Made by a program: the position numbers and the translations under genes. Source: Nitrospinota bacterium (GTDB lineage Bacteria; Nitrospinota; Nitrospinia; Nitrospinales; VA-1). From it: a stretch of 16,246 nt of DNA. The notes under the pieces are model-generated. The model ran no database searches. It worked only from the letters and a program-made list of their open reading frames with translations, and was not told the origin of the DNA. Within the stretch, counting starts at the first letter, position 1, and each line of letters opens with the position of its first letter. The stretch is taken from contig JAYNIA010000004.1 of the NCBI GenBank assembly GCA_038108555.1, positions 115,663-131,908 on the forward strand, given 5' to 3'. Shown one piece after another: positions 2,950 through 16,246 of this stretch.

Positions 2950-4671
2950 TTAATCGAGGTGGATGCCAAATCCTATCAGGAACAATTTGGAACAATCTGC
3001 CAGAGTAGCTCCTGAACTGGGTTTGGCGAAAACGTGGACAATACAATAAAACTGGATCGTGCAATACATGGCAATGAAGTCGGTGAACCAGTAACGGTCC
3101 AGCGTCCAGGGTTTTCGCCTGGGCTTTCTCCAGAATAAATAAAGTTCCGTTACGGTTATTCCCAATGACAACAAAACAAAATAAGGCCAGGTCTTTATTA
3201 CTTCCCAGAAATTTTCAAAAAACATTCCGTGATAAAACATTCCTTCCGTCACATGGCCCCATACGAGGTTTCCCATGGCCACAGCCGCAAACGTGGCTAA
3301 AGTTATTCGTAAGACAATATTGTTTTTGAAAAACCTGAAAAAGGTGGGGTAATAAAAACAGCGCACCAGAAATTCTCTGTAATGGAAAGTAAAGCGAATC
3401 CAAAACGTGACTAGATTGGTGGCCATCCACGGCTTGTTGAAGTAAGGGTCCATCCGGTAACCACACACCCGCCATATTCCTGTTTTGAAATGGACCGATC
3501 CTCCCCATAACATCATCCATCGTATTTGGTCCAAAACCGTGGTGGCCAGAACAGATGAGGTGGTTACTTCTTTTCCATCGACATAATATGAAACCATTCT
3601 TGTAATCCTGGCGTTATAAACTTCGATTCCAAAATACTCGAAGAGGTCCACCAATCCATATCGAATCACATCGTTAAAAACGAGATAAACCAGGGCAATT
3701 CCCCAAATCTTGATTCCTTCAATCGCCAGTTTATTTTTATCTTCACAATAAAAATTGTTTTCAAGATAGGTATAACCCTGCCCAATGGTCACACCCCATT
3801 TCCAATTGGGAAGGGAGGCGGGTGTTAAAAAAATGGAAAGATAATTTATGGGAGAAACTTCTTTCGGCATTCGACCACTTTTGTAGTCTACGTGGTACAT
3901 CATCAACCTTTCCCAATGCCAGAAGAACAGCAGGACTCCCAATGGCAGGGTCCAAACCTCCCCATTAACACCTTCCCAAATCGCCCCAACGCAAACCGTC
4001 AACAATGCCGATTGGACGACCAACGTCCTGAGTATCTTTACAAAAGTTTCGAACCGCAGCATTAATGGCCAAATCACCAAATTTAGGGAAAAGCAAAAAA
4101 CGATCCCCCAGGTGGATACAATTGAGGCATTCTTGTACCAGGTGTCATCGGGCTCACCAAAGGCAATGCACGCGAGCACTCCAGCAATCAACCCAAAAGA
4201 AAATTTTTGCGACGGCTTTGGAATATGCAAAACCAAATATACGAGCCAATGGACCAATACCAGACAGGTCGTGGTTCGCAAACCATACAAAACCACCATA
4301 CCAATGAGAAAGGAAATAAACAGCGAAGCCTTTTTGAAACGCATCGGAAGAAAATAAGCGAATAAGAAAGCAACGGCAACCACGGCAAACAGGATCAAAC
4401 GTTCGTCATCATTATTAAATTCATCCGTCGAAGAAAGGAACAGTTCGCTGTCTACGTTGTGGTCGTCGTCAAAAATATCTTCCGTTTCAATTCCCATTTG
4501 CTCAACCAAATGTTGAGGCCGCGGCAGATTCACCCAATCTGCAATATGGGTAAACAGGTAGGCGTAAACCAGCAAAAGCCCGATCACTGCGCAAACAACC
4601 GGCCAGCTTGTCCGGGCATTGTTTTCCTTTTGCTGTTCCTGAGTGAGGGGTTTACTTCCTAAAAAGGACAT
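2950..4671 (-). CDS. Divergent membrane-bound O-acyltransferase (MBOAT, DltB/AlgI-like), 573 aa
   Basis: Many TM segments. GYRMDPYFNKPWMATNLVTFWIRFTFHYREFLVRCFYYP matches the MBOAT NFxxPxxAxxxxxFWxRWHxxLxxxLxxYxYxP region. Candidate catalytic His in LVWGHV (3253-3255). Start overlaps the carrier-protein stop (TAATG). Confidence 0.8.
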   Translation of the reverse strand: MSFLGSKPLTQEQQKENNARTSWPVVCAVIGLLLVYAYLFTHIADWVNLPRPQHLVEQMGIETEDIFDDDHNVDSELFLSSTDEFNNDDERLILFAVVAVAFLFAYFLPMRFKKASLFISFLIGMVVLYGLRTTTCLVLVHWLVYLVLHIPKPSQKFSFGLIAGVLACIAFGEPDDTWYKNASIVSTWGIVFCFSLNLVIWPLMLRFETFVKILRTLVVQSALLTVCVGAIWEGVNGEVWTLPLGVLLFFWHWERLMMYHVDYKSGRMPKEVSPINYLSIFLTPASLPNWKWGVTIGQGYTYLENNFYCEDKNKLAIEGIKIWGIALVYLVFNDVIRYGLVDLFEYFGIEVYNARITRMVSYYVDGKEVTTSSVLATTVLDQIRWMMLWGGSVHFKTGIWRVCGYRMDPYFNKPWMATNLVTFWIRFTFHYREFLVRCFYYPTFFRFFKNNIVLRITLATFAAVAMGNLVWGHVTEGMFYHGMFFENFWEVIKTWPYFVLLSLGITVTELYLFWRKPRRKPWTLDRYWFTDFIAMYCTIQFYCIVHVFAKPSSGATLADCSKLFLIGFGIHLD

Positions 4672-4931
4672 TAGGACTGCAATTTATTAATTACAAAGTT
4701 TGAAAGACTGTCAATGTTTTGAAATATCTCTGCATTAATATCTGACTCCACAAGAGAAATTCCAAACTTTTCTTCCAGATGGAGGACGGTAGTTAAGACC
4801 CGGAGGGAATCTGTTATAAACAACGAGGGCAGGTCGGAAGTATCTGTAAGTTCTATATCAGAAGCTGGGAACTCACTTTGAAAAAATTGTTTTAAATCCG
4901 AAGATATTTTTTCTTTGTTGATGGGTTCCAT
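4671..4931 (-). CDS. Acyl/aminoacyl carrier protein (DltC-like), 86 aa
   Basis: Small acidic protein with DSL phosphopantetheine motif (Ser42, 4806-4808), followed by LEEKFGI and FQNIDSLSNFV. Confidence 0.88.
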   Translation of the reverse strand: MEPINKEKISSDLKQFFQSEFPASDIELTDTSDLPSLFITDSLRVLTTVLHLEEKFGISLVESDINAEIFQNIDSLSNFVINKLQS

Positions 4932-4963
4932 AAAATTACCTTAAAAATATTACAGGCCCAGCC

Positions 4964-6082
4964 CTATAAAATCTTAAAGGCGTTCAGGAGATCATTTTTC
5001 AGGTCTTCAATATTTTTCAGTCCAAACGACAATCGCACCAGGTTTTCACCGATATTGATTTGTCGTTTTTCTTCATCCGTCATGGATGCATGGCTTCCCG
5101 ACCAGGGTTGCGCGATCATGGATGTCACACAAGCCATGCCCGTTCCCGTATTGAAAATTTTTAAAGCCTGCATGAATTTTGGATATCCACCCGGATTTTT
5201 GAGTTCAAAAAACAAAATTCCTGCATATCCATTCAATTGTTTGCCATCTATTTTGGGATAATAAACTTTCTCCACCTGCGGCTGCTGGTTTAGAAAATCT
5301 CTCATTTCCGCACATACACTTTGTTGCTGTTTCAAACGGATGTCCAGGGTTTGCAGACTGCGACGGGTCAGCCATGCATTTTCAGGAGAAAGGAGCAAAC
5401 CTCCATAGAACCGCGTCTCGCGAAACTCATCCGCCAAGTCCTGGCGATCCGTCATTAAAACACCATTCATTACATCACTATGACCGGAAAAATATTTGGT
5501 CCCACTATGCAAAGACACATCTGCTCCCAACTCCAGGGGATGCTGGAATAAGGGGGTGGCCCATGTATTGTCAACCACGACCAATGCTTCCGGATTGTTT
5601 CCTTTAACATGTTTGGAAACTTTTTCGATGTCCACCGTTTTTAAAAACGGATTGGTCGGTGTTTCGAAAAATATCATTTTTGTATCGGAAGGTATTTTTT
5701 CAATATTTGATTCTTCAGAAAAATCCAAAGCCACCAGGTTGAATCCTCTCCGTTCACTGATTCGTTGCAACAATTTAAAGCTGCAGCCATAGATATAGGG
5801 ATTCACCACAAACGTGTCGCCTGTGCGAAGAAGCTCCAGAGTCATAAAAATGGCTGACATGCCACAGGTAACCGCCACAGCATGTTTAGCGTTTTCCAAA
5901 GTGAGCAGGACCTTTTCCAGCTCTGCAACATTGGGATTATTTTTGCGGGTATAAAAATAAGGAGAATCGGCTTCGAAAGCACTGGTTTGATAAACAGGGG
6001 TTACCGCAGGGTGCGCTCCTTCATCGTCTTCGCGAATATGTAAAGCACGAGTGATCGGATCGAATTTGTTTCCGTCTTCTAT
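4964..6082 (-). CDS. PLP-dependent Cys/Met metabolism enzyme (cystathionine gamma-lyase/synthase family); probable ATA start
   Basis: ETPTNP, DNTWATP, HSGTKYFSGHSD (PLP lysine) and LVRLSFG. The frame stays open 61 codons upstream of the track's TTG 5899 and encodes the conserved N-terminus (TRALH, AVTPVYQTSAF, YTRKNNPNVAELE). The family call is firm; the start position is inferred. Confidence 0.88.
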   Translation of the reverse strand: MEDGNKFDPITRALHIREDDEGAHPAVTPVYQTSAFEADSPYFYTRKNNPNVAELEKVLLTLENAKHAVAVTCGMSAIFMTLELLRTGDTFVVNPYIYGCSFKLLQRISERRGFNLVALDFSEESNIEKIPSDTKMIFFETPTNPFLKTVDIEKVSKHVKGNNPEALVVVDNTWATPLFQHPLELGADVSLHSGTKYFSGHSDVMNGVLMTDRQDLADEFRETRFYGGLLLSPENAWLTRRSLQTLDIRLKQQQSVCAEMRDFLNQQPQVEKVYYPKIDGKQLNGYAGILFFELKNPGGYPKFMQALKIFNTGTGMACVTSMIAQPWSGSHASMTDEEKRQINIGENLVRLSFGLKNIEDLKNDLLNAFKIL

Positions 6083-7485
6083 TGGTTCGGCTCCGCCAGA
6101 GAAAGTTTCAGTTTTTCAGGTATCTGCTTGCCCTCAAATTTTGGAAAGGCGGTCCTGTCATTTTCGGACACACCCTCTTCCAGGGAAATAGTTGGAAAAT
6201 GGGCCCGATCAAAAACCTCAAACAGGTTTGATTCTATATAATCCGGCAAAGCAATTTCCAGTCCTGTTTCCTCGGGATTGGATTTGGCAAGTATGAAACG
6301 GAAGCTTTCTTCAGCAGCCAGGGGGATTTCATTCCAAAACTCCTGATTCTTTCTCCGATAAAAAATACTGGCATCCTGAATTGAAGGGTTTTTCGCCTGA
6401 ACATGGATGGAGGTAATGTCGCCTCGCCATTCATAACTATGTTGGACAAAAGTTTCCGTTGGAAGAGCCACTTCCTTGCTCTTTAAGGAACCTTGCAAGT
6501 CGAGGGCCTTGAAATGAACCTCTTTGCCGCAGCTCTCACAGGTTGAATCTTCCTTCAAACTTTCAAGGTGCGCCGACAAACCGAACCGGTGCACCAGTTT
6601 ACTTCCACAATAATTGCAAAATGAACTGGTCGCATCTGTATTGGCAACATTCCCAAGATATACATGCTGAAGTCCCATTTCCTTTGCAATGGCCTGTGCT
6701 TTTTCCAAACGGTCGATTGGAGTACGGACGGTATCGCGCATGCGGTACTCGGGATGAAAGCGGACAAAATGCAGGGGAATTTCCGGACCCAGATTTTCCA
6801 AAACCCAACCCGCCATTTTTCTTGCCGATTCTTCATTGTCACTGATATCGGTGATCATTAGGTTACTGACCTCAAGATGTTTTCCGGCTTGAAGGATTTT
6901 TTTAGTCGCCTCCAAAACCGGTTGCAGCCAGCCCGTCGTCAGTTTTCGATAATACGCTTCATCGATGGCTTTGATGGAGACAGAAAAGATATCAATATAT
7001 GGCAAAAGTTCATCTAATGCTTCTTCAGTGATAAAGCAGGCGGATTTATATAAATTATATATTCCATGCTTTTGCGCAAGTTTGGCAGTGGCAATCACAA
7101 ATTCGTGCCAAACAACGGGGTCGTTATATGTCCAGGAAAGAACGCGAATGTTGTGCCGCAAAGCGGTTTCGATTATGGATTCGGGTGTAAAGGAATGGAC
7201 GTCTTTATCTTCTACAAACTTTGCCTGAGAGGTTTTCCAGTTCTGGCAATACTGGCAATTTAAATTACAGCCAATATTCCCCAGGGAAAGAATTTTTGCG
7301 CCTGGAGCAAAATGGTAAATCGCTTCGGTTTCGATCAATTCTTCGGTGACATGGACTCCCTTACCAAAAGTATAAGTCACCAATCTTCCATCACGGTTTC
7401 CGCGTACTCCACAAAAACCCAATTGCCCTTCCTTCATTTTGCAATTTCGTGGCGAAAGATTGCATTGCACTTCCCCATTTGGCAA
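6079..7485 (-). CDS. amrS: AmmeMemoRadiSam-type radical SAM enzyme with a C-terminal extension (original start may be ATG 7530, interrupted by TAG)
   Basis: CxxxCxxC in GCNLNCQYCQNW (7246-7269). N-terminal CNLSPRNC...GFCGVR, IETEAIYHFAPG, WTYNDP, PLHFVRFHPEY, VYLGNV, and CNYCG...CESCG. Confidence 0.85.
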   Translation of the reverse strand: MPNGEVQCNLSPRNCKMKEGQLGFCGVRGNRDGRLVTYTFGKGVHVTEELIETEAIYHFAPGAKILSLGNIGCNLNCQYCQNWKTSQAKFVEDKDVHSFTPESIIETALRHNIRVLSWTYNDPVVWHEFVIATAKLAQKHGIYNLYKSACFITEEALDELLPYIDIFSVSIKAIDEAYYRKLTTGWLQPVLEATKKILQAGKHLEVSNLMITDISDNEESARKMAGWVLENLGPEIPLHFVRFHPEYRMRDTVRTPIDRLEKAQAIAKEMGLQHVYLGNVANTDATSSFCNYCGSKLVHRFGLSAHLESLKEDSTCESCGKEVHFKALDLQGSLKSKEVALPTETFVQHSYEWRGDITSIHVQAKNPSIQDASIFYRRKNQEFWNEIPLAAEESFRFILAKSNPEETGLEIALPDYIESNLFEVFDRAHFPTISLEEGVSENDRTAFPKFEGKQIPEKLKLSLAEPNQ

Positions 7486-7572
7486 TTGCTGTTCCAGGTT
7501 GGCTAACTAGTATTCACCTTTGAAACTCATTGAGGCTCCAATGGACAATAATTCAAATAGATTTAGGCTAGC

Positions 7573-7581
7573 ATCTTATCA
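7573..7581 (-). promoter_or_regulatory. Candidate extended -10 promoter upstream of the radical SAM gene
   Basis: TG-A-TAAGAT on the minus strand in the AT-rich ~100-nt gap, about 40 nt upstream of ATG 7530. Confidence 0.35.
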
Positions 7582-7631
7582 CTATTCGGAATATTTTAGT
7601 GTTAAGGAAACGTTACATAATAACCAGGCCT

Positions 7632-9833
7632 TCAATGACTGAGAAAGTTTCTCATCCATTCCGGCGCACCTTCACCGGAAACCACCTGAAAATCCGTGGG
7701 TTTTGGGTCTGGTAACGATTGACGGTCGACTTTTCCGTTCGCGGTTAAAGGCATTTTTTCCAACAATACCAACGCAGAAGGAACCATATAAGAGGGGAAT
7801 TTCTGGACGAGCGTTTTCAAGATACTTTCTGTTTCCAAGGTTACATCTTTAAATGGAACGAGGTAGGCAACCAGATAAGGTTGATCATTGGAATGCTTGT
7901 TCACTAAAACCGTGCAAGCCTGCACTCCATCACACCCATTTAGAACCGCTTCGATTTCTCCCGGCTCCACCCGGTAGCCACGGATTTTGACTTGAAAGTC
8001 AACGCGTCCTAAAAACTCCATATCGCCATTGGTCATATAGCGAGCACGATCCCCCGTGCGATAAATCATTTGTCCGGACTTAAAGGGATGAGGAACAAAT
8101 TTCTCCTTCGTCCTTTCTTCCTGATTTAAATATCCACGGGCAATACAAACTCCACCCAGACACATTTCACCAGGAACCCCAACAGGAACTGGATTTAAAA
8201 AAGGATCTAAAATGTAAATTTCAATATTCTCCAAAGGCTTGCCAATAGGGGGCCCCAAAGGACGGGGAGGTTCATCTGCGTTCGTCAAATACGCCGAGAC
8301 AGTAACGGTACCTTCTGCGGGACCATATCCGTTAAAAAAGTTTCTTCCCGGTGCCCATTTTTTTACATTCTCATTGGTACACCGTTCCCCAACCGCGATC
8401 ACGGTTTCCAGGGAATCCAATCCTTCCGAAGAAATCACGTTCAAAAGTGAAGGGGGAAGCAATGCCATGGTAATTTTTTCTTCCCTTAATGTTTTGGGTA
8501 ACGTCAGTAAAGAGAAAAGGGACTTTTTGGTTCCCAGACATAGAGTGCCCCCGGCTGCGAGTGCCATGAAAATTTCCCAAACCGCCACATCAAATCCAAA
8601 AGAAGAAAATTGCAACATCCGAGTTTTTCTATGAACCTTGAAATAGCGGTTTGAAGTATGCGTTAAATTTGCCAACCCGCCATGGGTCAATAGAATTCCC
8701 TTCGGCTTTCCTGTAGATCCGGATGTGAAAATGACATAGGACAGATTTTTTTCTGTCAGTTCAATTTCCGGAGGTGCCTCTGAAAAAGATTGAAATTCGG
8801 TCGGGTCTGAATCGAGACACAGGGTTTTTATTTCACCCACGTCGATTCTTGTTTTTAAATCAGACTGGGTTATTAAAATTGGGGAATTCATTTCATCCCA
8901 AATAGCCTGCAGTCGTTCATCGGGATAGGCTGGGTCTAAAGGTGCATAAGCACCCCCCGCTTTTAATATGGCAAGGATGCCGACAATACATTCAAAGGAA
9001 CGCGACATAAAAATCCTGACACAGACATCGGGACCCACATTGACCGTCTTAAGATAGTTCGCTAAACGATTGGCCCTTTGGTCCAACTCGGAATAAGTTA
9101 AAGTTTCCCCTGCAATTTCCACTGCCGGAGAATTTGGATTTTCTTTTGCAACCTTTTCGATCCAATGATGGATGATGCCATCCCCCGGAAGGCTGGCCTC
9201 GGTATCGTTCCATTGGGATACAATTTTTTCATGTTCCTCTTTAGAAAGTAGCGTCAAACTGGAAACGGGTTTTTCTGGTTCATCCATTCCACTTTGTAAA
9301 AGATTTACGAAATGGTCTGCTAATCGGGATAGCATTTCACCATCAAATAATTCGACACTGCACCCAATTGTTCCCGAAAATATTTTTTCCTTTTCCTTTA
9401 GGTTGATAACCAGGGCAGGTTCGGAGGTTTCCAGATCATCGGGTAAAACAACATTCCGTGACAGAACGGAAGGGTCCCATACATTCAGGATTATCTTGTA
9501 TAGCGGAGTCGACCCGGAGTCTTTCATCTCCAGGGCTTCGATTAGGGTTTCCTGTGAATACGAGTCCGAATCGGCAAGGACAAGGTTTTCTGTTGAAGCC
9601 AGAATTTGCTTAAAGGTCAGGGAGGAATCAATCCTGGAGATGTAATGGATTAGTTTGGGTGAAGAAAAACGGGGAGCGGTACGAGTTCCCAGAACAAATT
9701 CATTTTGGGAAGTGTAACGAAATATTAAAACTTGCAGAAGGGCAAACAAAACCTGAAACGGCGAGCAGTTTTGCTCCTTACAAAACGAATCAAACTTTTC
9801 TTTCAGGTCTTCAGGAATTTCAAAACCAAACAT
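7632..9833 (-). CDS. Stand-alone NRPS-like amino acid adenylation enzyme (truncated condensation domain plus A domain, no thiolation domain)
   Basis: A-domain cores present: LTYSEL, LKAGGAYAPLD, YVIFTSGSTGKPKG, FDVAVWE, NGYGPAE, GEMCLGG..ARGYL, YRTGD, GRVDFQVKIRGYRVEPGEIE, PSYMVP, NGKVDR. The first ~200 aa resemble the second half of a C domain (no HHxxxDG). No GGxS PCP motif. Confidence 0.9.
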   Translation of the reverse strand: MFGFEIPEDLKEKFDSFCKEQNCSPFQVLFALLQVLIFRYTSQNEFVLGTRTAPRFSSPKLIHYISRIDSSLTFKQILASTENLVLADSDSYSQETLIEALEMKDSGSTPLYKIILNVWDPSVLSRNVVLPDDLETSEPALVINLKEKEKIFSGTIGCSVELFDGEMLSRLADHFVNLLQSGMDEPEKPVSSLTLLSKEEHEKIVSQWNDTEASLPGDGIIHHWIEKVAKENPNSPAVEIAGETLTYSELDQRANRLANYLKTVNVGPDVCVRIFMSRSFECIVGILAILKAGGAYAPLDPAYPDERLQAIWDEMNSPILITQSDLKTRIDVGEIKTLCLDSDPTEFQSFSEAPPEIELTEKNLSYVIFTSGSTGKPKGILLTHGGLANLTHTSNRYFKVHRKTRMLQFSSFGFDVAVWEIFMALAAGGTLCLGTKKSLFSLLTLPKTLREEKITMALLPPSLLNVISSEGLDSLETVIAVGERCTNENVKKWAPGRNFFNGYGPAEGTVTVSAYLTNADEPPRPLGPPIGKPLENIEIYILDPFLNPVPVGVPGEMCLGGVCIARGYLNQEERTKEKFVPHPFKSGQMIYRTGDRARYMTNGDMEFLGRVDFQVKIRGYRVEPGEIEAVLNGCDGVQACTVLVNKHSNDQPYLVAYLVPFKDVTLETESILKTLVQKFPSYMVPSALVLLEKMPLTANGKVDRQSLPDPKPTDFQVVSGEGAPEWMRNFLSH

Positions 9834-9844
9834 ATAAGATTAGG

Positions 9845-10930
9845 CTAGGTAAACCTGCTGCCTTTTCCGGTGAGTTGTTTTTGTAGTAGAGAAACTTCCT
9901 TACCCTGACAATCCTCGATTCGGCCAATAACTTGCGATGGAAGATCGTGTTTTTTACAAATTTCAGCGATGGCTTCCACTTCTTTTTCACCCTCTACCAC
10001 CAGGCAAAATCCGGTCCCCATATTAAAGACTTCAAACATTTCGGCTTCACTCACCCCACCTCTATCCTGAATCAGATTAAAAACTTCATGCACCGGTTGC
10101 AAATTGTCTATGACAAAACGAATGTTGTCGCATTCCACACGGTTGAGATTGCAAAACCCGCCACTGGTGATATGAACCATTGCTTTAAGATCGATTCCTG
10201 AATCGAGCATTTCCATTACCGGTTTCACGTAAATTTTTGTGGGGATCAATAACGCCTCTCCCAATGTCTGATCCAAAAACTCTTCGTAATCATTGACCCG
10301 AGACTTTTGCTCTTCCAGAGTTTCTCCCAGTAAAACCCGACGGGCCAGGGTAAGTCCGTTCGAATGGACCCCACTCGATGCCAGTCCAACAATGAGATTA
10401 CCCGGCTTAATATTTTTTCCGGTATTGACCTTGTCGAGAGAAACATGGCCGATGCAGGCACCAATGAGGTCTATCCCCGAAATAATTTCTTTGATTTGGG
10501 AAATTTCTCCTCCGGATATACTGATATTAGATTGCCGGGCTCCTTCCGCCAACCCTTCACCCAACTGCTTGAACACCTCCGGGTCGGTGTGCGAACAGGC
10601 AATATAATCGACCATACTGACAGGACGGGCACCAACGCAAATAACGTCATTCACATTCATCGCCACGCAATCTATACCAATGGTGTCGTAACGATTGAGC
10701 ATTTCAGCAATCAGAATTTTGGTTCCCACACCATCCGTTCCGAAAGCAATTCCTTCACCATTGCCAAGGTCAATGACGTTTGCAAAATAACCTATATCCG
10801 CTGCAAGGGGATAACGGTCACTGAATTTTCGTGTGGGTAAAACATGGCTGAGTAATCCTGAAAGTGCCGTTTCCGCCCCTTGGCTTGATACTCCGCTCTG
10901 GTCGTATTGGGATTTTTCTGATTCGGTCAT
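9845..10930 (-). CDS. purM: Phosphoribosylformylglycinamidine cyclo-ligase (AIR synthetase), divergent
   Basis: YxxSGV, TDGVGTK, GIDCVAMNVND, DYIA, GGE, GLASSGVHSNG, PTKIYV, HITSGG and FNMGTG. Confidence 0.9.
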   Translation of the reverse strand: MTESEKSQYDQSGVSSQGAETALSGLLSHVLPTRKFSDRYPLAADIGYFANVIDLGNGEGIAFGTDGVGTKILIAEMLNRYDTIGIDCVAMNVNDVICVGARPVSMVDYIACSHTDPEVFKQLGEGLAEGARQSNISISGGEISQIKEIISGIDLIGACIGHVSLDKVNTGKNIKPGNLIVGLASSGVHSNGLTLARRVLLGETLEEQKSRVNDYEEFLDQTLGEALLIPTKIYVKPVMEMLDSGIDLKAMVHITSGGFCNLNRVECDNIRFVIDNLQPVHEVFNLIQDRGGVSEAEMFEVFNMGTGFCLVVEGEKEVEAIAEICKKHDLPSQVIGRIEDCQGKEVSLLQKQLTGKGSRFT

Positions 10931-14139: not shown

Positions 14140-15558
14140 ATGTTATTCAACTCCCTCACATTTTTAGTTTTCTTCGTAGTAATTTTAGGATTTCACTACA
14201 CCGTCTCCTCCTGGCGGGTTCAAAAGTCTATTCTGCTGATAGCCAGCTATATTTTTTACGCGGCCTGGAATCCTCCGTTCGTAATTTTACTATGGATTTC
14301 AACATTGGCAGACTGGTATGTGGCGAAAGCTCTGGCAATAGAAGAGGTGAGGGTAAAACGCCGGTTGCTTTTATCTGCCAGTCTTACGGTGAATCTTGGT
14401 TTGCTCGGGTTTTTTAAATACGGTGAATTTATTCTGGAAAATTTTGTCGAACTGGCCAGCCTTTGCGGCTTTTCTTATGTTCCCGCTAAGTGGGATATCA
14501 TTCTTCCCGTTGGAATTTCATTTTATACTTTTCAAACCCTCTCCTATACCCTGGACGTTTACTTTAAAAAAGCTGAACGCTGCCAATCGTTTCTTGACTT
14601 CGCACTTTATGTAACTTTTTTTCCACAGCTGGTTGCGGGACCCATTGTAAGAGCAACGGATTTTCTACCTCAATGCGAAGAGCCTAAACGTGCCACTCGC
14701 GATCAATTTGGCTGGGGACTCTATTTCATCACTCTGGGATTATTCCAAAAAGTGGTTCTTGCTGACGGAATGTTATCTTCCGCCTCCGACACCGTTTTCA
14801 ATTTTAAAGATGGTTCTATTTACTTTCTCGATGCATGGCTGGGACTCCTGGCTTTTTCTGCACAGATTTTTTGCGACTTCGCTGGCTACTCCACCTGCGC
14901 CATTGGCGTCGCTTTATGCCTTGGGTTTATTTTGCCGGACAACTTCCGTTCCCCTTATGCAGCGATTGGGTTTTCTGATTTCTGGCGCCGGTGGCATATC
15001 ACCCTTTCCAGTTGGTTACGCGATTACCTCTACATACCCCTGGGTGGGAACCGACATGGAACCTCACGCACCTTATTCAACCTTATGTTTACCATGTTCC
15101 TGGGTGGGCTTTGGCATGGTGCCTCATGGACGTTCATCGTATGGGGCCTGCTTCATGGGACTTATCTGGTCGTTGAACATTTGTTGAAACAAAAATTTCC
15201 CGACCTCAATTGGGTCAAATCGCTTGCGGGTCGATTTATTCTTACAGGTATTACTTTCATTCTCGTGAGTATTGCATGGATTTTTTTTCGAGCGGGAGAT
15301 TTTCCAACGGCTTGTATGATTTTGGGTTCTCTGATTAGTTTTTCAGGCGCACAAATTCTGCCGACCTTGGAAATCATCCAGGTTTCAGTTGTGGTTGGTA
15401 CGCTGCTTGGATCGCATTGGTATTTGCATGAAAAAAGGCTGGAGCACGCCATGCAGGATATGCCGGCATGGTGGGTGGTTGTCATTTGGACCACCATGTT
15501 ATTTGGAATAATTTTAATGCAGGGAGGGGCAAATGCCTTCATCTACTTCCAGTTTTAA
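14140..15558 (+). CDS. MBOAT family O-acyltransferase, AlgI/PatA-like
   Basis: MLFNS..FL.FF, ASYIFYAAW, LPVGISFYTFQ, FFPQLVAGPI, DFAGYS, NFRSPY, DFWRRWHITLSSWLRDYLYIPLGGNR, GLWHGA and terminal FIYFQF. Confidence 0.93.
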   Translation: MLFNSLTFLVFFVVILGFHYTVSSWRVQKSILLIASYIFYAAWNPPFVILLWISTLADWYVAKALAIEEVRVKRRLLLSASLTVNLGLLGFFKYGEFILENFVELASLCGFSYVPAKWDIILPVGISFYTFQTLSYTLDVYFKKAERCQSFLDFALYVTFFPQLVAGPIVRATDFLPQCEEPKRATRDQFGWGLYFITLGLFQKVVLADGMLSSASDTVFNFKDGSIYFLDAWLGLLAFSAQIFCDFAGYSTCAIGVALCLGFILPDNFRSPYAAIGFSDFWRRWHITLSSWLRDYLYIPLGGNRHGTSRTLFNLMFTMFLGGLWHGASWTFIVWGLLHGTYLVVEHLLKQKFPDLNWVKSLAGRFILTGITFILVSIAWIFFRAGDFPTACMILGSLISFSGAQILPTLEIIQVSVVVGTLLGSHWYLHEKRLEHAMQDMPAWWVVVIWTTMLFGIILMQGGANAFIYFQF

Positions 15559-16246
15559 AACATACGAGCTCACACGCATTATCCCCAAGCAACATTGGTT
15601 GCTGTTGGCGGCCGTTACTCTTGTTTTAACCGCTATGCTGACACTAGGGTGGGAGCTCTATGTCCGAAGCCTGGGATATGCACCTGTGCTCAATGACACC
15701 GAAGATTTATGGGCGAGTCGAAGGTCAATTGTTGATGAGGAACCGAATCGTACCGTTTTGATAGGCTCCTCCAGAATGCTGTTTGATTTTGATATGGATG
15801 TTTATGAAAAAGAGTTTGGGGATCGACCACTACAACTTGCCACTGTGGGAACCAATCCGGGACCTTACCTTGAAGACCTTGCCAATCATCCTGACTATTC
15901 GGGAACGGTTATTGTAGGTGTGGTGCCGGGACTTTTTTTCGCCCCGGGAGGTCCCCCCATGAAAAGTCCCATGAACCACTTGAAACGTTTCAGGGAATGG
16001 AGTCCGACTCAAAAATTCAGCCATCAGGTATCCAAAATAATAGAGAAGTGGTTTGCATTTTTAAACAATGATGATTTAACCCTGAACCAGTTATTTCTCG
16101 ATCTAAAAATTCCAAACCGGGAAAAAGTAAAAGGCAAACCCGAGCTACCTCCCTATTTTCACGAAGTCGATGACGAAAGACAGGGAGGTATGACAGTTTT
16201 TGCAGCAAATAACATTTCGCTGCAAAAACGAATCCAACAAATCTGG
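15533..16246 (+). CDS. Membrane-anchored SGNH/DltD/AlgJ-like partner of the MBOAT, 5' part (runs off the window edge)
   Basis: Not in the ORF track. ATG 15533 with SD GGAGGGG, 238 open codons: MPSSTSSFKTYELTRIIPKQHWLLLAAVTLVLTAMLTLGWELYVRSLGY...TVLIGSSRMLFDFD...QLATVGTNPGPYLEDLA...VIVGVVPGLFF. One N-terminal TM helix and a GSS motif at 15764. Confidence 0.8.
   Translation, partial: MPSSTSSFKTYELTRIIPKQHWLLLAAVTLVLTAMLTLGWELYVRSLGYAPVLNDTEDLWASRRSIVDEEPNRTVLIGSSRMLFDFDMDVYEKEFGDRPLQLATVGTNPGPYLEDLANHPDYSGTVIVGVVPGLFFAPGGPPMKSPMNHLKRFREWSPTQKFSHQVSKIIEKWFAFLNNDDLTLNQLFLDLKIPNREKVKGKPELPPYFHEVDDERQGGMTVFAANNISLQKRIQQIW

Follow-up and report, generated by a model that had tools for sequence, protein, structure and literature searches.

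Known relays of the Dlt type carry ordinary residues such as D-Ala, and the Dlt system of teichoic acid D-alanylation (DltA, DltC, DltB, DltX and DltD) keeps an adenylation (A) enzyme, a carrier protein and the membrane protein DltB in one operon. A locus of comparable content lies in a 16,246-nucleotide stretch of DNA (the window; contig JAYNIA010000004.1 of assembly GCA_038108555.1, positions 115,663 to 131,908) from the 2.9-Mb, 92% complete genome of a Nitrospinota bacterium (G000). It encodes an A enzyme, a radical S-adenosylmethionine (rSAM) enzyme, a pyridoxal 5′-phosphate (PLP) enzyme, a carrier and a membrane-bound O-acyltransferase (MBOAT). In the interpretation that we favour, with rather better than even confidence, the rSAM/PLP pair makes an apolar, non-standard α-amino acid, the A domain loads it onto the carrier, and the MBOAT moves it across the inner membrane to an envelope acceptor. 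The cluster is a real, conserved and apparently undescribed variant of a Dlt-type relay that includes its own monomer pathway, although this genome probably has a broken copy.

The available portion of PMC12148441 describes an FxYxxF shuttle for DltX and PatA, conserved in MBOAT-based polymer acylation. For the monomer half, the closest pathways are Orf29/Orf30 (norcoronamic acid), GnmY and PazA/PazB, in which C-H functionalisation is followed by PLP-dependent ring closure feeding a nonribosomal peptide synthetase (NRPS); the accessible parts of PMC13351049 and PMC7277169 present a radical enzyme and a PLP partner that yield a free amino acid for a dedicated A domain. Orf29 is B12-dependent, and GnmY and Orf30 belong to the aspartate aminotransferase superfamily, according to the accessible parts of PMC7277169 and PMC10491745, whereas the rSAM enzyme studied here has no B12 domain and its PLP partner is of the Cys/Met family. 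PazA, moreover, is an Fe/α-ketoglutarate halogenase, and none of Orf29/Orf30, GnmY and PazA/PazB feeds an MBOAT. Orf29/Orf30 and PazA/PazB, being of other enzyme families, thus serve as precedents for radical-then-PLP chemistry by analogy only.

The albomycin enzyme AbmM, which exchanges oxygen for sulfur, is likewise an rSAM enzyme of a biosynthetic cluster with extra Fe-S ligands. An AbmM/ThmA-type sulfur swap (accessible part of PMC12691670) was considered and set aside: AbmM is not a close homologue (10% identity; Z 10.0, which places it at rank 36 of the rSAM folds), and the rSAM sequence has no PDB match. The pavettamine pathway of leaf symbionts was also discarded, since the genes described in the available part of 10.64898/2026.06.12.731819 differ. 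No description of the cluster or its rSAM clade was found in the open-licence literature searched, including the accessible portions of PMC9092360, PMC13149037, 10.1101/2022.09.27.509721, PMC3783018 and PMC7159879, in keeping with an earlier remark that the combination was not recognised as a characterised pathway; subscription literature may describe Pseudomonas or Streptomyces clusters. An extended-data figure of PMC13149037 concerns gene neighbourhoods of CGS and rSAM enzymes that are uncharacterised.

Organization of the five-gene locus

The features of the locus are as follows.

7632..9833, minus strand: stand-alone A enzyme, from Pfam/NCBIfam searches, with pocket code DVWLIVGVT
6079..7530, minus strand: long-clade AmrS-like rSAM gene, 483 codons by homology, interrupted at codon 8
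7507..7509, minus strand: in-frame TAG at rSAM codon 8, CAG (Gln) in close relatives
4964..6082, minus strand: Cys/Met-metabolism PLP enzyme of 372 aa (Pfam, alignment)
4671..4931, minus strand: stand-alone carrier of 86 aa with Ser42 in a DSLR signature (Pfam, alignment)
2950..4671, minus strand: Pfam-negative membrane protein of 573 aa with MBOAT fold (predicted structure, alignment)
9845..10930, minus strand: purM, 11 nt upstream of the A-enzyme gene

The initial annotation, made from the sequence alone, had named five adjacent minus-strand genes of these types, and open reading frame (ORF) analysis, Pfam/NCBIfam searches and fold checks recover all of them. The A enzyme indeed has no peptidyl carrier protein (PCP); Pfam adds that a truncated condensation domain, of which only the C-terminal half is present (profile positions 230-456), precedes its AMP-binding domain, and a motif scan of the protein finds no HHxxxDG. 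The AmrS-type rSAM assignment is upheld by TIGR04337 (306.5 bits, cut-off 220), and that of the Cys/Met-family PLP enzyme by Cys_Met_Meta_PP (PF01053, E 2.6e-89). The DSL carrier is confirmed by D41-S42-L43, with a PF00550 score just below the cut-off (20.3 against 20.8 bits, E 6.6e-4), and the divergent MBOAT is recognized by its fold. Where the annotation erred was at the start of the rSAM gene, which lies at ATG 7530 with the TAG in frame, a stop codon that had been overlooked.

The tight junctions reported there (ATAG overlap, 32 nt, TAATG overlap) are reproduced when the sequence is rechecked. The PLP gene starts with ATA (6080-6082), overlapping the rSAM stop in the junction at 6079-6082; this start is kept in close relatives (L022, L039, L043, L122), and the other Nitrospinota family uses ATG. 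Promoter and terminator scans returned chance-level hits only. The purM gene is the sole copy in the genome, and in Magnetococcia and the other Nitrospinota family it does not adjoin the cluster; we therefore regard it as a neighbouring host gene outside the system.

Two modules and their distribution

The cluster joins two modules: a widespread chassis of A enzyme, carrier and MBOAT, and an uncharacterised monomer pair of rSAM and PLP enzymes. Among 120 genomes of the nitrite-oxidising Nitrospinota, 10 carry the rSAM gene and 23 the MBOAT family. The order A-rSAM-PLP-carrier-MBOAT occurs in nine of the ten rSAM-bearing genomes, spanning two families, and the contig of the tenth ends inside the rSAM gene. 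In the magnetotactic Magnetococcia, the MBOAT is present in 4/56 genomes and the rSAM gene in 2/56, both of the latter among the four. One of these (G140) places the MBOAT and carrier divergently from the A enzyme, rSAM and PLP genes, all five within 7 kb; the other (G061) holds the two halves of the cluster, each at the start of a separate contig. Recurrence in distant taxa, which had been proposed as a check on the cluster, is thus observed in rearranged form, as one whole and one split locus. Transfer between lineages possibly explains part of this distribution. Selection on the cluster is purifying (nonsynonymous divergence, dN, 0.05-0.18; synonymous divergence, dS, 1.3-2.7), with dN/dS far below 1 where computable and two pairs saturated.

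The chassis also occurs without the pair. In 77 metagenome MBOAT loci, an rSAM or PLP gene is found in only four, while 54 of the 55 loci with room upstream have the carrier as the immediate upstream neighbour of the MBOAT, and 43/44 with more room have an adenylation enzyme, of either amino-acid or acyl-CoA-ligase type. Recurring neighbours are a sulfatase-family protein, a membrane protein of ~230 aa, a TauD dioxygenase and a phosphatidylserine (PS)-decarboxylase-like gene paired with a TPR gene; together these sister loci point to envelope or lipid chemistry with interchangeable tailoring. One of 301 genomes in the order of G063 carries the MBOAT, again in a chassis-only locus. The chassis-only trio loci (L023-L034, L129-L173, L211 and L212) represent an undescribed system in its own right, and in L044, L045 and L128 two MBOAT clusters of the family stand tail to tail within one locus.

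The pair, in turn, occurs without the chassis. A genome scan with the rSAM protein gave 279 stretches with relatives; the analysis used the best 80, 72 of them outside Nitrospinota. These 72 loci include 28 with the same PLP clade, 35 with LysE and 25 with YczE. Across 201 genomes from the same class as G062, a search for the PLP clade returned none, a result that is uninformative, as a contig end interrupts the known positive. In Pseudomonas (L052-L070), Lrp, YczE, rSAM, PLP, class I aminotransferase and LysE exporter genes form a compact operon, and neither an A domain nor a carrier is detected at the rSAM/PLP loci. Because these loci combine rSAM, PLP and LysE genes with no detected A domain, the pair likely works on a free substrate and likely makes a free amino acid that is exported. 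The earlier suggestion that tailoring acts on a free or a carrier-bound unit is narrowed in this way: the first option gains support from the Pseudomonas loci, and the second is less favoured. The Pseudomonas operon is itself a tractable candidate pathway for an exported amino acid. Locus L067 comes from a record titled Leclercia, yet its flanking genes are those of the Pseudomonas loci, and it may be mislabelled.

Other rSAM loci have different surroundings. In L050, L051, L076, L088 and L117 (mostly Acidobacteriota, one Bradyrhizobium), the clade belongs to an uncharacterised multi-radical cluster with SPASM and HemN-like rSAM enzymes, a methyltransferase, an HgcAB-like fusion (in L051 above the NF043039 cut-off), a GNAT-like protein, ThiF and an M20 peptidase. 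Nine Actinomycetota loci (L086, L100, L105-L107, L110, L111, L118 and L119) combine the rSAM gene with ferredoxin, cupin, class V aminotransferase and zinc alcohol dehydrogenase genes, and also with AurF-like, RraA-ferritin fusion, GATase and LysE genes. Other Streptomyces loci place it beside SPASM plus HemN-like or B12 rSAM enzymes.

Adenylation enzyme and carrier co-vary with the rSAM/PLP pair

The pocket code of the A enzyme is DVWLIVGVT, at positions that we assigned by assumed GrsA numbering; in this numbering Asp235 is retained and the pocket is otherwise apolar. The code DVW[LM][IV]VG[VI]T is found in all module-linked A enzymes examined from Nitrospinota and Magnetococcia, whereas chassis-only enzymes of amino-acid type carry DNLFLALVD. 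With conservative changes, it also occurs in condensation-adenylation-thiolation (C-A-T) NRPS modules that share a contig with the rSAM and PLP pair in two Pyrinomonadaceae genomes (Acidobacteriota), where it ranks first of the candidate pockets (22 and 86 in the two genomes). All A domains with this type of code form a single clade (FastTree support 0.997). In a genome with the rSAM gene and no PLP gene at the locus, neither of the two pockets examined has a code of this type. The functional tie between the rSAM/PLP enzymes and the A domain that the initial annotation had drawn is thus supported by a pocket code common to cluster and NRPS modules; by sequence, pair and A domain are probably linked.

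The PCP-less A enzymes of both phyla end in a conserved W-[MLFI]-x-x-F tail (7632-7670 in the window), which is absent from the NRPS-embedded and chassis-only versions and is possibly a docking or membrane helix.

The carrier is of the stand-alone type with a phosphopantetheine-accepting Ser, and an ACPS gene is present in the genome. Its DSLR signature is found in 12/14 module-linked carriers, as against 1/53 others (six duplicate loci excluded), counts that include kin and represent about three independent lineages; the sole exception among the 53 is a relic in G010. Since the module-linked MBOATs split into two lineages, both with DSLR carriers, the signature does not reflect simple descent of one operon.

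A membrane protein of MBOAT fold in a Dlt-like setting

The 573-aa membrane protein has no sequence match in Pfam, NCBIfam (including PF03062 and TIGR04091) or the PDB, and none of 16 distant homologues has a Pfam match (0/16); as defined here (E up to 0.001), the family outside Pfam comprises 865 clusters at 50% identity. Its AlphaFold model (mean pLDDT 92.5) was compared with known structures using Foldseek and VIA. DltB is the first match in both (Foldseek E 9e-7; VIA Z 18.8, rmsd 4.1, 373 aligned residues), PORCN, HHAT and LPCAT3 are further leading matches, and all ten VIA rows with Z above 8 are MBOATs. The predicted structure shows an MBOAT fold, which supports the Dlt-like logic of A enzyme, carrier and MBOAT proposed at the outset. 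In the alignment of 56 homologues, N468 and H473 are invariant, the latter, a putative catalytic His, lying in the motif G-N-L-x-W-G-H. A profile comparison with a second, AlgI-type MBOAT of the window is weak (probability 1.3%, E 0.04, 56 columns).

Departures from the Dlt system are considerable. The A enzyme is NRPS-derived, with its half condensation domain, and falls well below the DltA equivalog cut-offs (276.2 against 559.85 bits for TIGR01734; 296.1 against 476 for NF003417). The MBOAT is 11-12% identical to DltB, the host is diderm, and the cluster brings its own monomer-building enzymes. DltD (PF04914) has no match in the 92% complete G000, whereas controls matched in B. subtilis and L. 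lactis. A scan of stop-terminated frames ending in FxYxxF across 109 loci found no such motif recurring at the cluster, although a microprotein elsewhere in the genome may carry it; the AlgI-type gene ending at 15558 was recovered as a positive control, and the motif is not at the C-terminus of the 573-aa MBOAT itself. Because the DltA cut-off is missed, DltD is not found and the shuttle is not at the cluster, the sequence evidence indicates that the cluster is not a member of the Dlt family, even if it would work like one.

The AmrS-like rSAM enzyme and its PLP partner

The rSAM enzyme resembles AmrS of AmmeMemoRadiSam systems in its TIGR04337 score, its fold, closest to the activase of pyruvate formate-lyase (PFL; Z 18.5, as against 12.8 for LipA, 12.9 for BioB and 10.0 for AbmM), and its cysteine layout, which agrees at all positions but one. 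It carries CxxxCxxC, an N-terminal C-x-L-S-P-x-x-C...C arrangement and two C-terminal CxxC pairs. Canonical AmrS has an N-terminal CxxC and ~350 aa, whereas the clade described here has C-x-L-S-P in 80 of 81 sequences (CxxCP in none) and a length of about 480 aa, with DPIEKKP replaced by EEIETEA and an extra β domain of ~130 aa containing EVFDRAHFPT. A search of the ESM Atlas with the C-terminal domain gave no match. The clade is a paralogue of AmrS (about 300 versus about 600 bits) and coexists with canonical AmrS in four genomes; a plasmid collection yielded only canonical AmrS. Neither amrA (AMMECR1) nor amrB (Memo) is found among the recurring neighbour families of rSAM loci. In G000, AMMECR1 lies on a different contig and Memo has no match, and a Pseudomonas genome (G181) has neither. 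A canonical AmrS role was rejected on the paralogous coexistence, the altered motifs and these missing partners, and the cluster, judged by its sequences, is not an AmmeMemoRadiSam system.

The PLP enzyme retains K196, Y44, R46, Y98, C100 and R350 as invariant residues, of which we take K196, Y98 and R350 to be the catalytic Lys, the PLP-stacking Tyr and the carboxylate-binding Arg. It carries Y-G-C, as in methionine γ-lyase (MGL), and the best PDB sequence matches of its clade are cystathionine γ-lyases and homocysteine desulfhydrases. Scores remain far below the equivalog cut-off of 594 bits for cystathionine γ-synthase (CGS), cystathionine γ-lyase or MGL (235 bits for a 311-aa ORF at best, and 275 bits for a full-length Pseudomonas member). 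The ESLG motif is replaced by GTGMACVTS, invariant across the clade. The Glu of ESLG presumably binds a distal amine, so its absence suggests that the side chain is uncharged.

Interruption of the rSAM gene in this genome

The homology start of the rSAM gene is ATG 7530, and codon 8, TAG in the window, is CAG in three close relatives. The frame reopens at TTG 7485, at the cost of the first 15 residues. Among these is an A-x-L-E strand that 48-49 of 52 aligned homologues share, and none of the 81 loci examined has a closed frame in this region (80 judged by pattern, one by eye). An assembly error was considered and found unlikely, as contigs of four runs, all from one study and two possibly the source of this DNA, cover the position with no other letter listed. 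Among the 36 tRNA genes found, an incomplete set, none has a CUA anticodon that would suppress the stop. No RNA data set was listed as carrying this sequence. The copy in G000 is probably crippled, with the radical step lost or weakened. The stop looks recent, because dN of the gene is not raised (0.073 and 0.095, versus 0.071 between two relatives). Loss of the module recurs within Nitrospinaceae: the same gene has a frameshift in G013, which may be an assembly error, G001 retains an 81-aa A-enzyme stub after purM, and in G010 purM is followed directly by carrier and MBOAT, the intervening genes being deleted.

Proposed function and alternative explanations

From the observed gene content, folds, conserved catalytic residues and co-variation, we infer the following chemistry. 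The rSAM enzyme would activate a C-H bond of a small amino acid or of a substrate from the SAM/Met pool, and the PLP enzyme, to judge from its family and from Orf29/Orf30 and PazA/PazB, would remove a γ-substituent, either by elimination or by closing a ring, to leave a residue that is unsaturated or contains a strained ring. An uncharged side chain, together with an apolar A pocket in which Asp235 is kept, suggests that this residue is apolar. The A domain, with which the carrier co-varies, would adenylate it and load Ser42 of the carrier. The MBOAT, assigned by fold, would then take the carrier thioester and pass its acyl group straight to a lipid or glycan, with no DltX/DltD shuttle in between.

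Several points weigh against this proposal. No enzyme activity, monomer or acceptor has been observed, and no DltD or FxYxxF shuttle was found. The rSAM gene is interrupted at codon 8 in G000 and frameshifted in G013. The five-gene form is rare, its second phylum consisting of one whole and one split locus, and two of the 14 module-linked carriers have no DSLR, in a co-variation that rests on about three independent lineages. Among the 72 non-Nitrospinota rSAM loci of the best 80 of 279, this MBOAT is absent from the available DNA of all (0/72) and this PLP clade from 44; in three loci unrelated Cys/Met PLP enzymes take its place, a pattern compatible with a generic role as C-S lyase or in sulfide chemistry.

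The strongest competing explanation, which we consider unlikely, is the same relay with an rSAM enzyme that inserts sulfur or forms C-S bonds and a PLP enzyme that only supplies sulfide or cleaves a cysteine thioether, so that the product is a thio-amino acid. The replacement of the second N-terminal Cys of AmrS by Ser (C-x-L-S-P, 80/81) leaves three Cys and a Ser, an arrangement that we take to be reminiscent of the LipA auxiliary cluster, and the substitute enzymes in the three loci resemble O-acetylhomoserine sulfhydrylase, MGL/CGS or cystathionine β-lyase; the PDB matches of the PLP clade to cystathionine γ-lyases and homocysteine desulfhydrases point the same way. The fold, however, is nearer to PFL-activase than to LipA, BioB or AbmM, and the PLP partners group tightly in one clade and share an invariant GTGMACVTS pocket, beyond the needs of a generic sulfide donor. 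In most rSAM loci without this PLP clade, moreover, no Cys/Met enzyme is detected.

A release or condensation role for the MBOAT, yielding a small secreted or membrane-bound metabolite (an aminoacyl-lipid or acyl-amino acid) instead of a modified polymer, is improbable in our view. It would explain why neither a DltD/SGNH partner nor the FxYxxF shuttle, conserved in MBOAT polymer acylation (available part of PMC12148441), is found. It also agrees with the use of the same monomer code in NRPS, with the PS-decarboxylase-like gene that follows the PLP gene in G140, and with the scores of eukaryotic lipid and protein MBOATs, which come close to that of DltB (Z 15.7-17.0). The top structural match is nonetheless DltB, a carrier-using MBOAT, and sister loci encode sulfatase-family proteins with membrane anchors, for which polymers of the outer face are possible substrates. 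Envelope display, as we prefer it, differs from the metabolite explanation only in the acceptor, the first three steps being common to both.

Chance juxtaposition of two unrelated, now decaying modules is very improbable: although both occur separately in most loci and breakage is repeated in Nitrospinaceae (the TAG in G000, the G013 frameshift, the G001 stub and the G010 deletion), the rSAM/chassis link survives rearrangement in another phylum and a change of MBOAT lineage, the module brings a PCP-less A enzyme that needs an external carrier and with which the carrier signature co-varies, and selection on the cluster is purifying.

If the favoured interpretation is true, biosynthesis of a new amino acid is coupled to envelope display in a marine nitrite-oxidiser lineage. 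The rSAM enzyme could yield the first reaction for any AmrS-family rSAM enzyme, with a six-gene operon available in culturable Pseudomonas. DVWLIVGVT would be a new A-domain code flagging the same monomer in NRPS clusters, and the MBOAT a family absent from Pfam that seemingly works without the FxYxxF shuttle. More tentatively, and against our own expectation by a little, the pair may represent a new rSAM/PLP pathway extending from Pseudomonas to myxobacteria and Acidobacteria, which Nitrospinota and Magnetococcia plug into a Pfam-invisible MBOAT decorating the Gram-negative envelope without a Tyr shuttle. That the residue is home-made and non-standard, an amino acid not yet described for which a separate adenylation code exists, is a conjecture we hold just as loosely.

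Other genes of the window

At 250-1674, the window encodes a TrmB tRNA methyltransferase that carries a fused helical repeat region at its C-terminus; contig C14 has a further, shorter TrmB match. At 14140-16246, a separate canonical MBOAT of AlgI/PatA type, ending in FIYFQF, precedes a partner ORF that the end of the window truncates; the adjacency of this pair to the five genes is not conserved.

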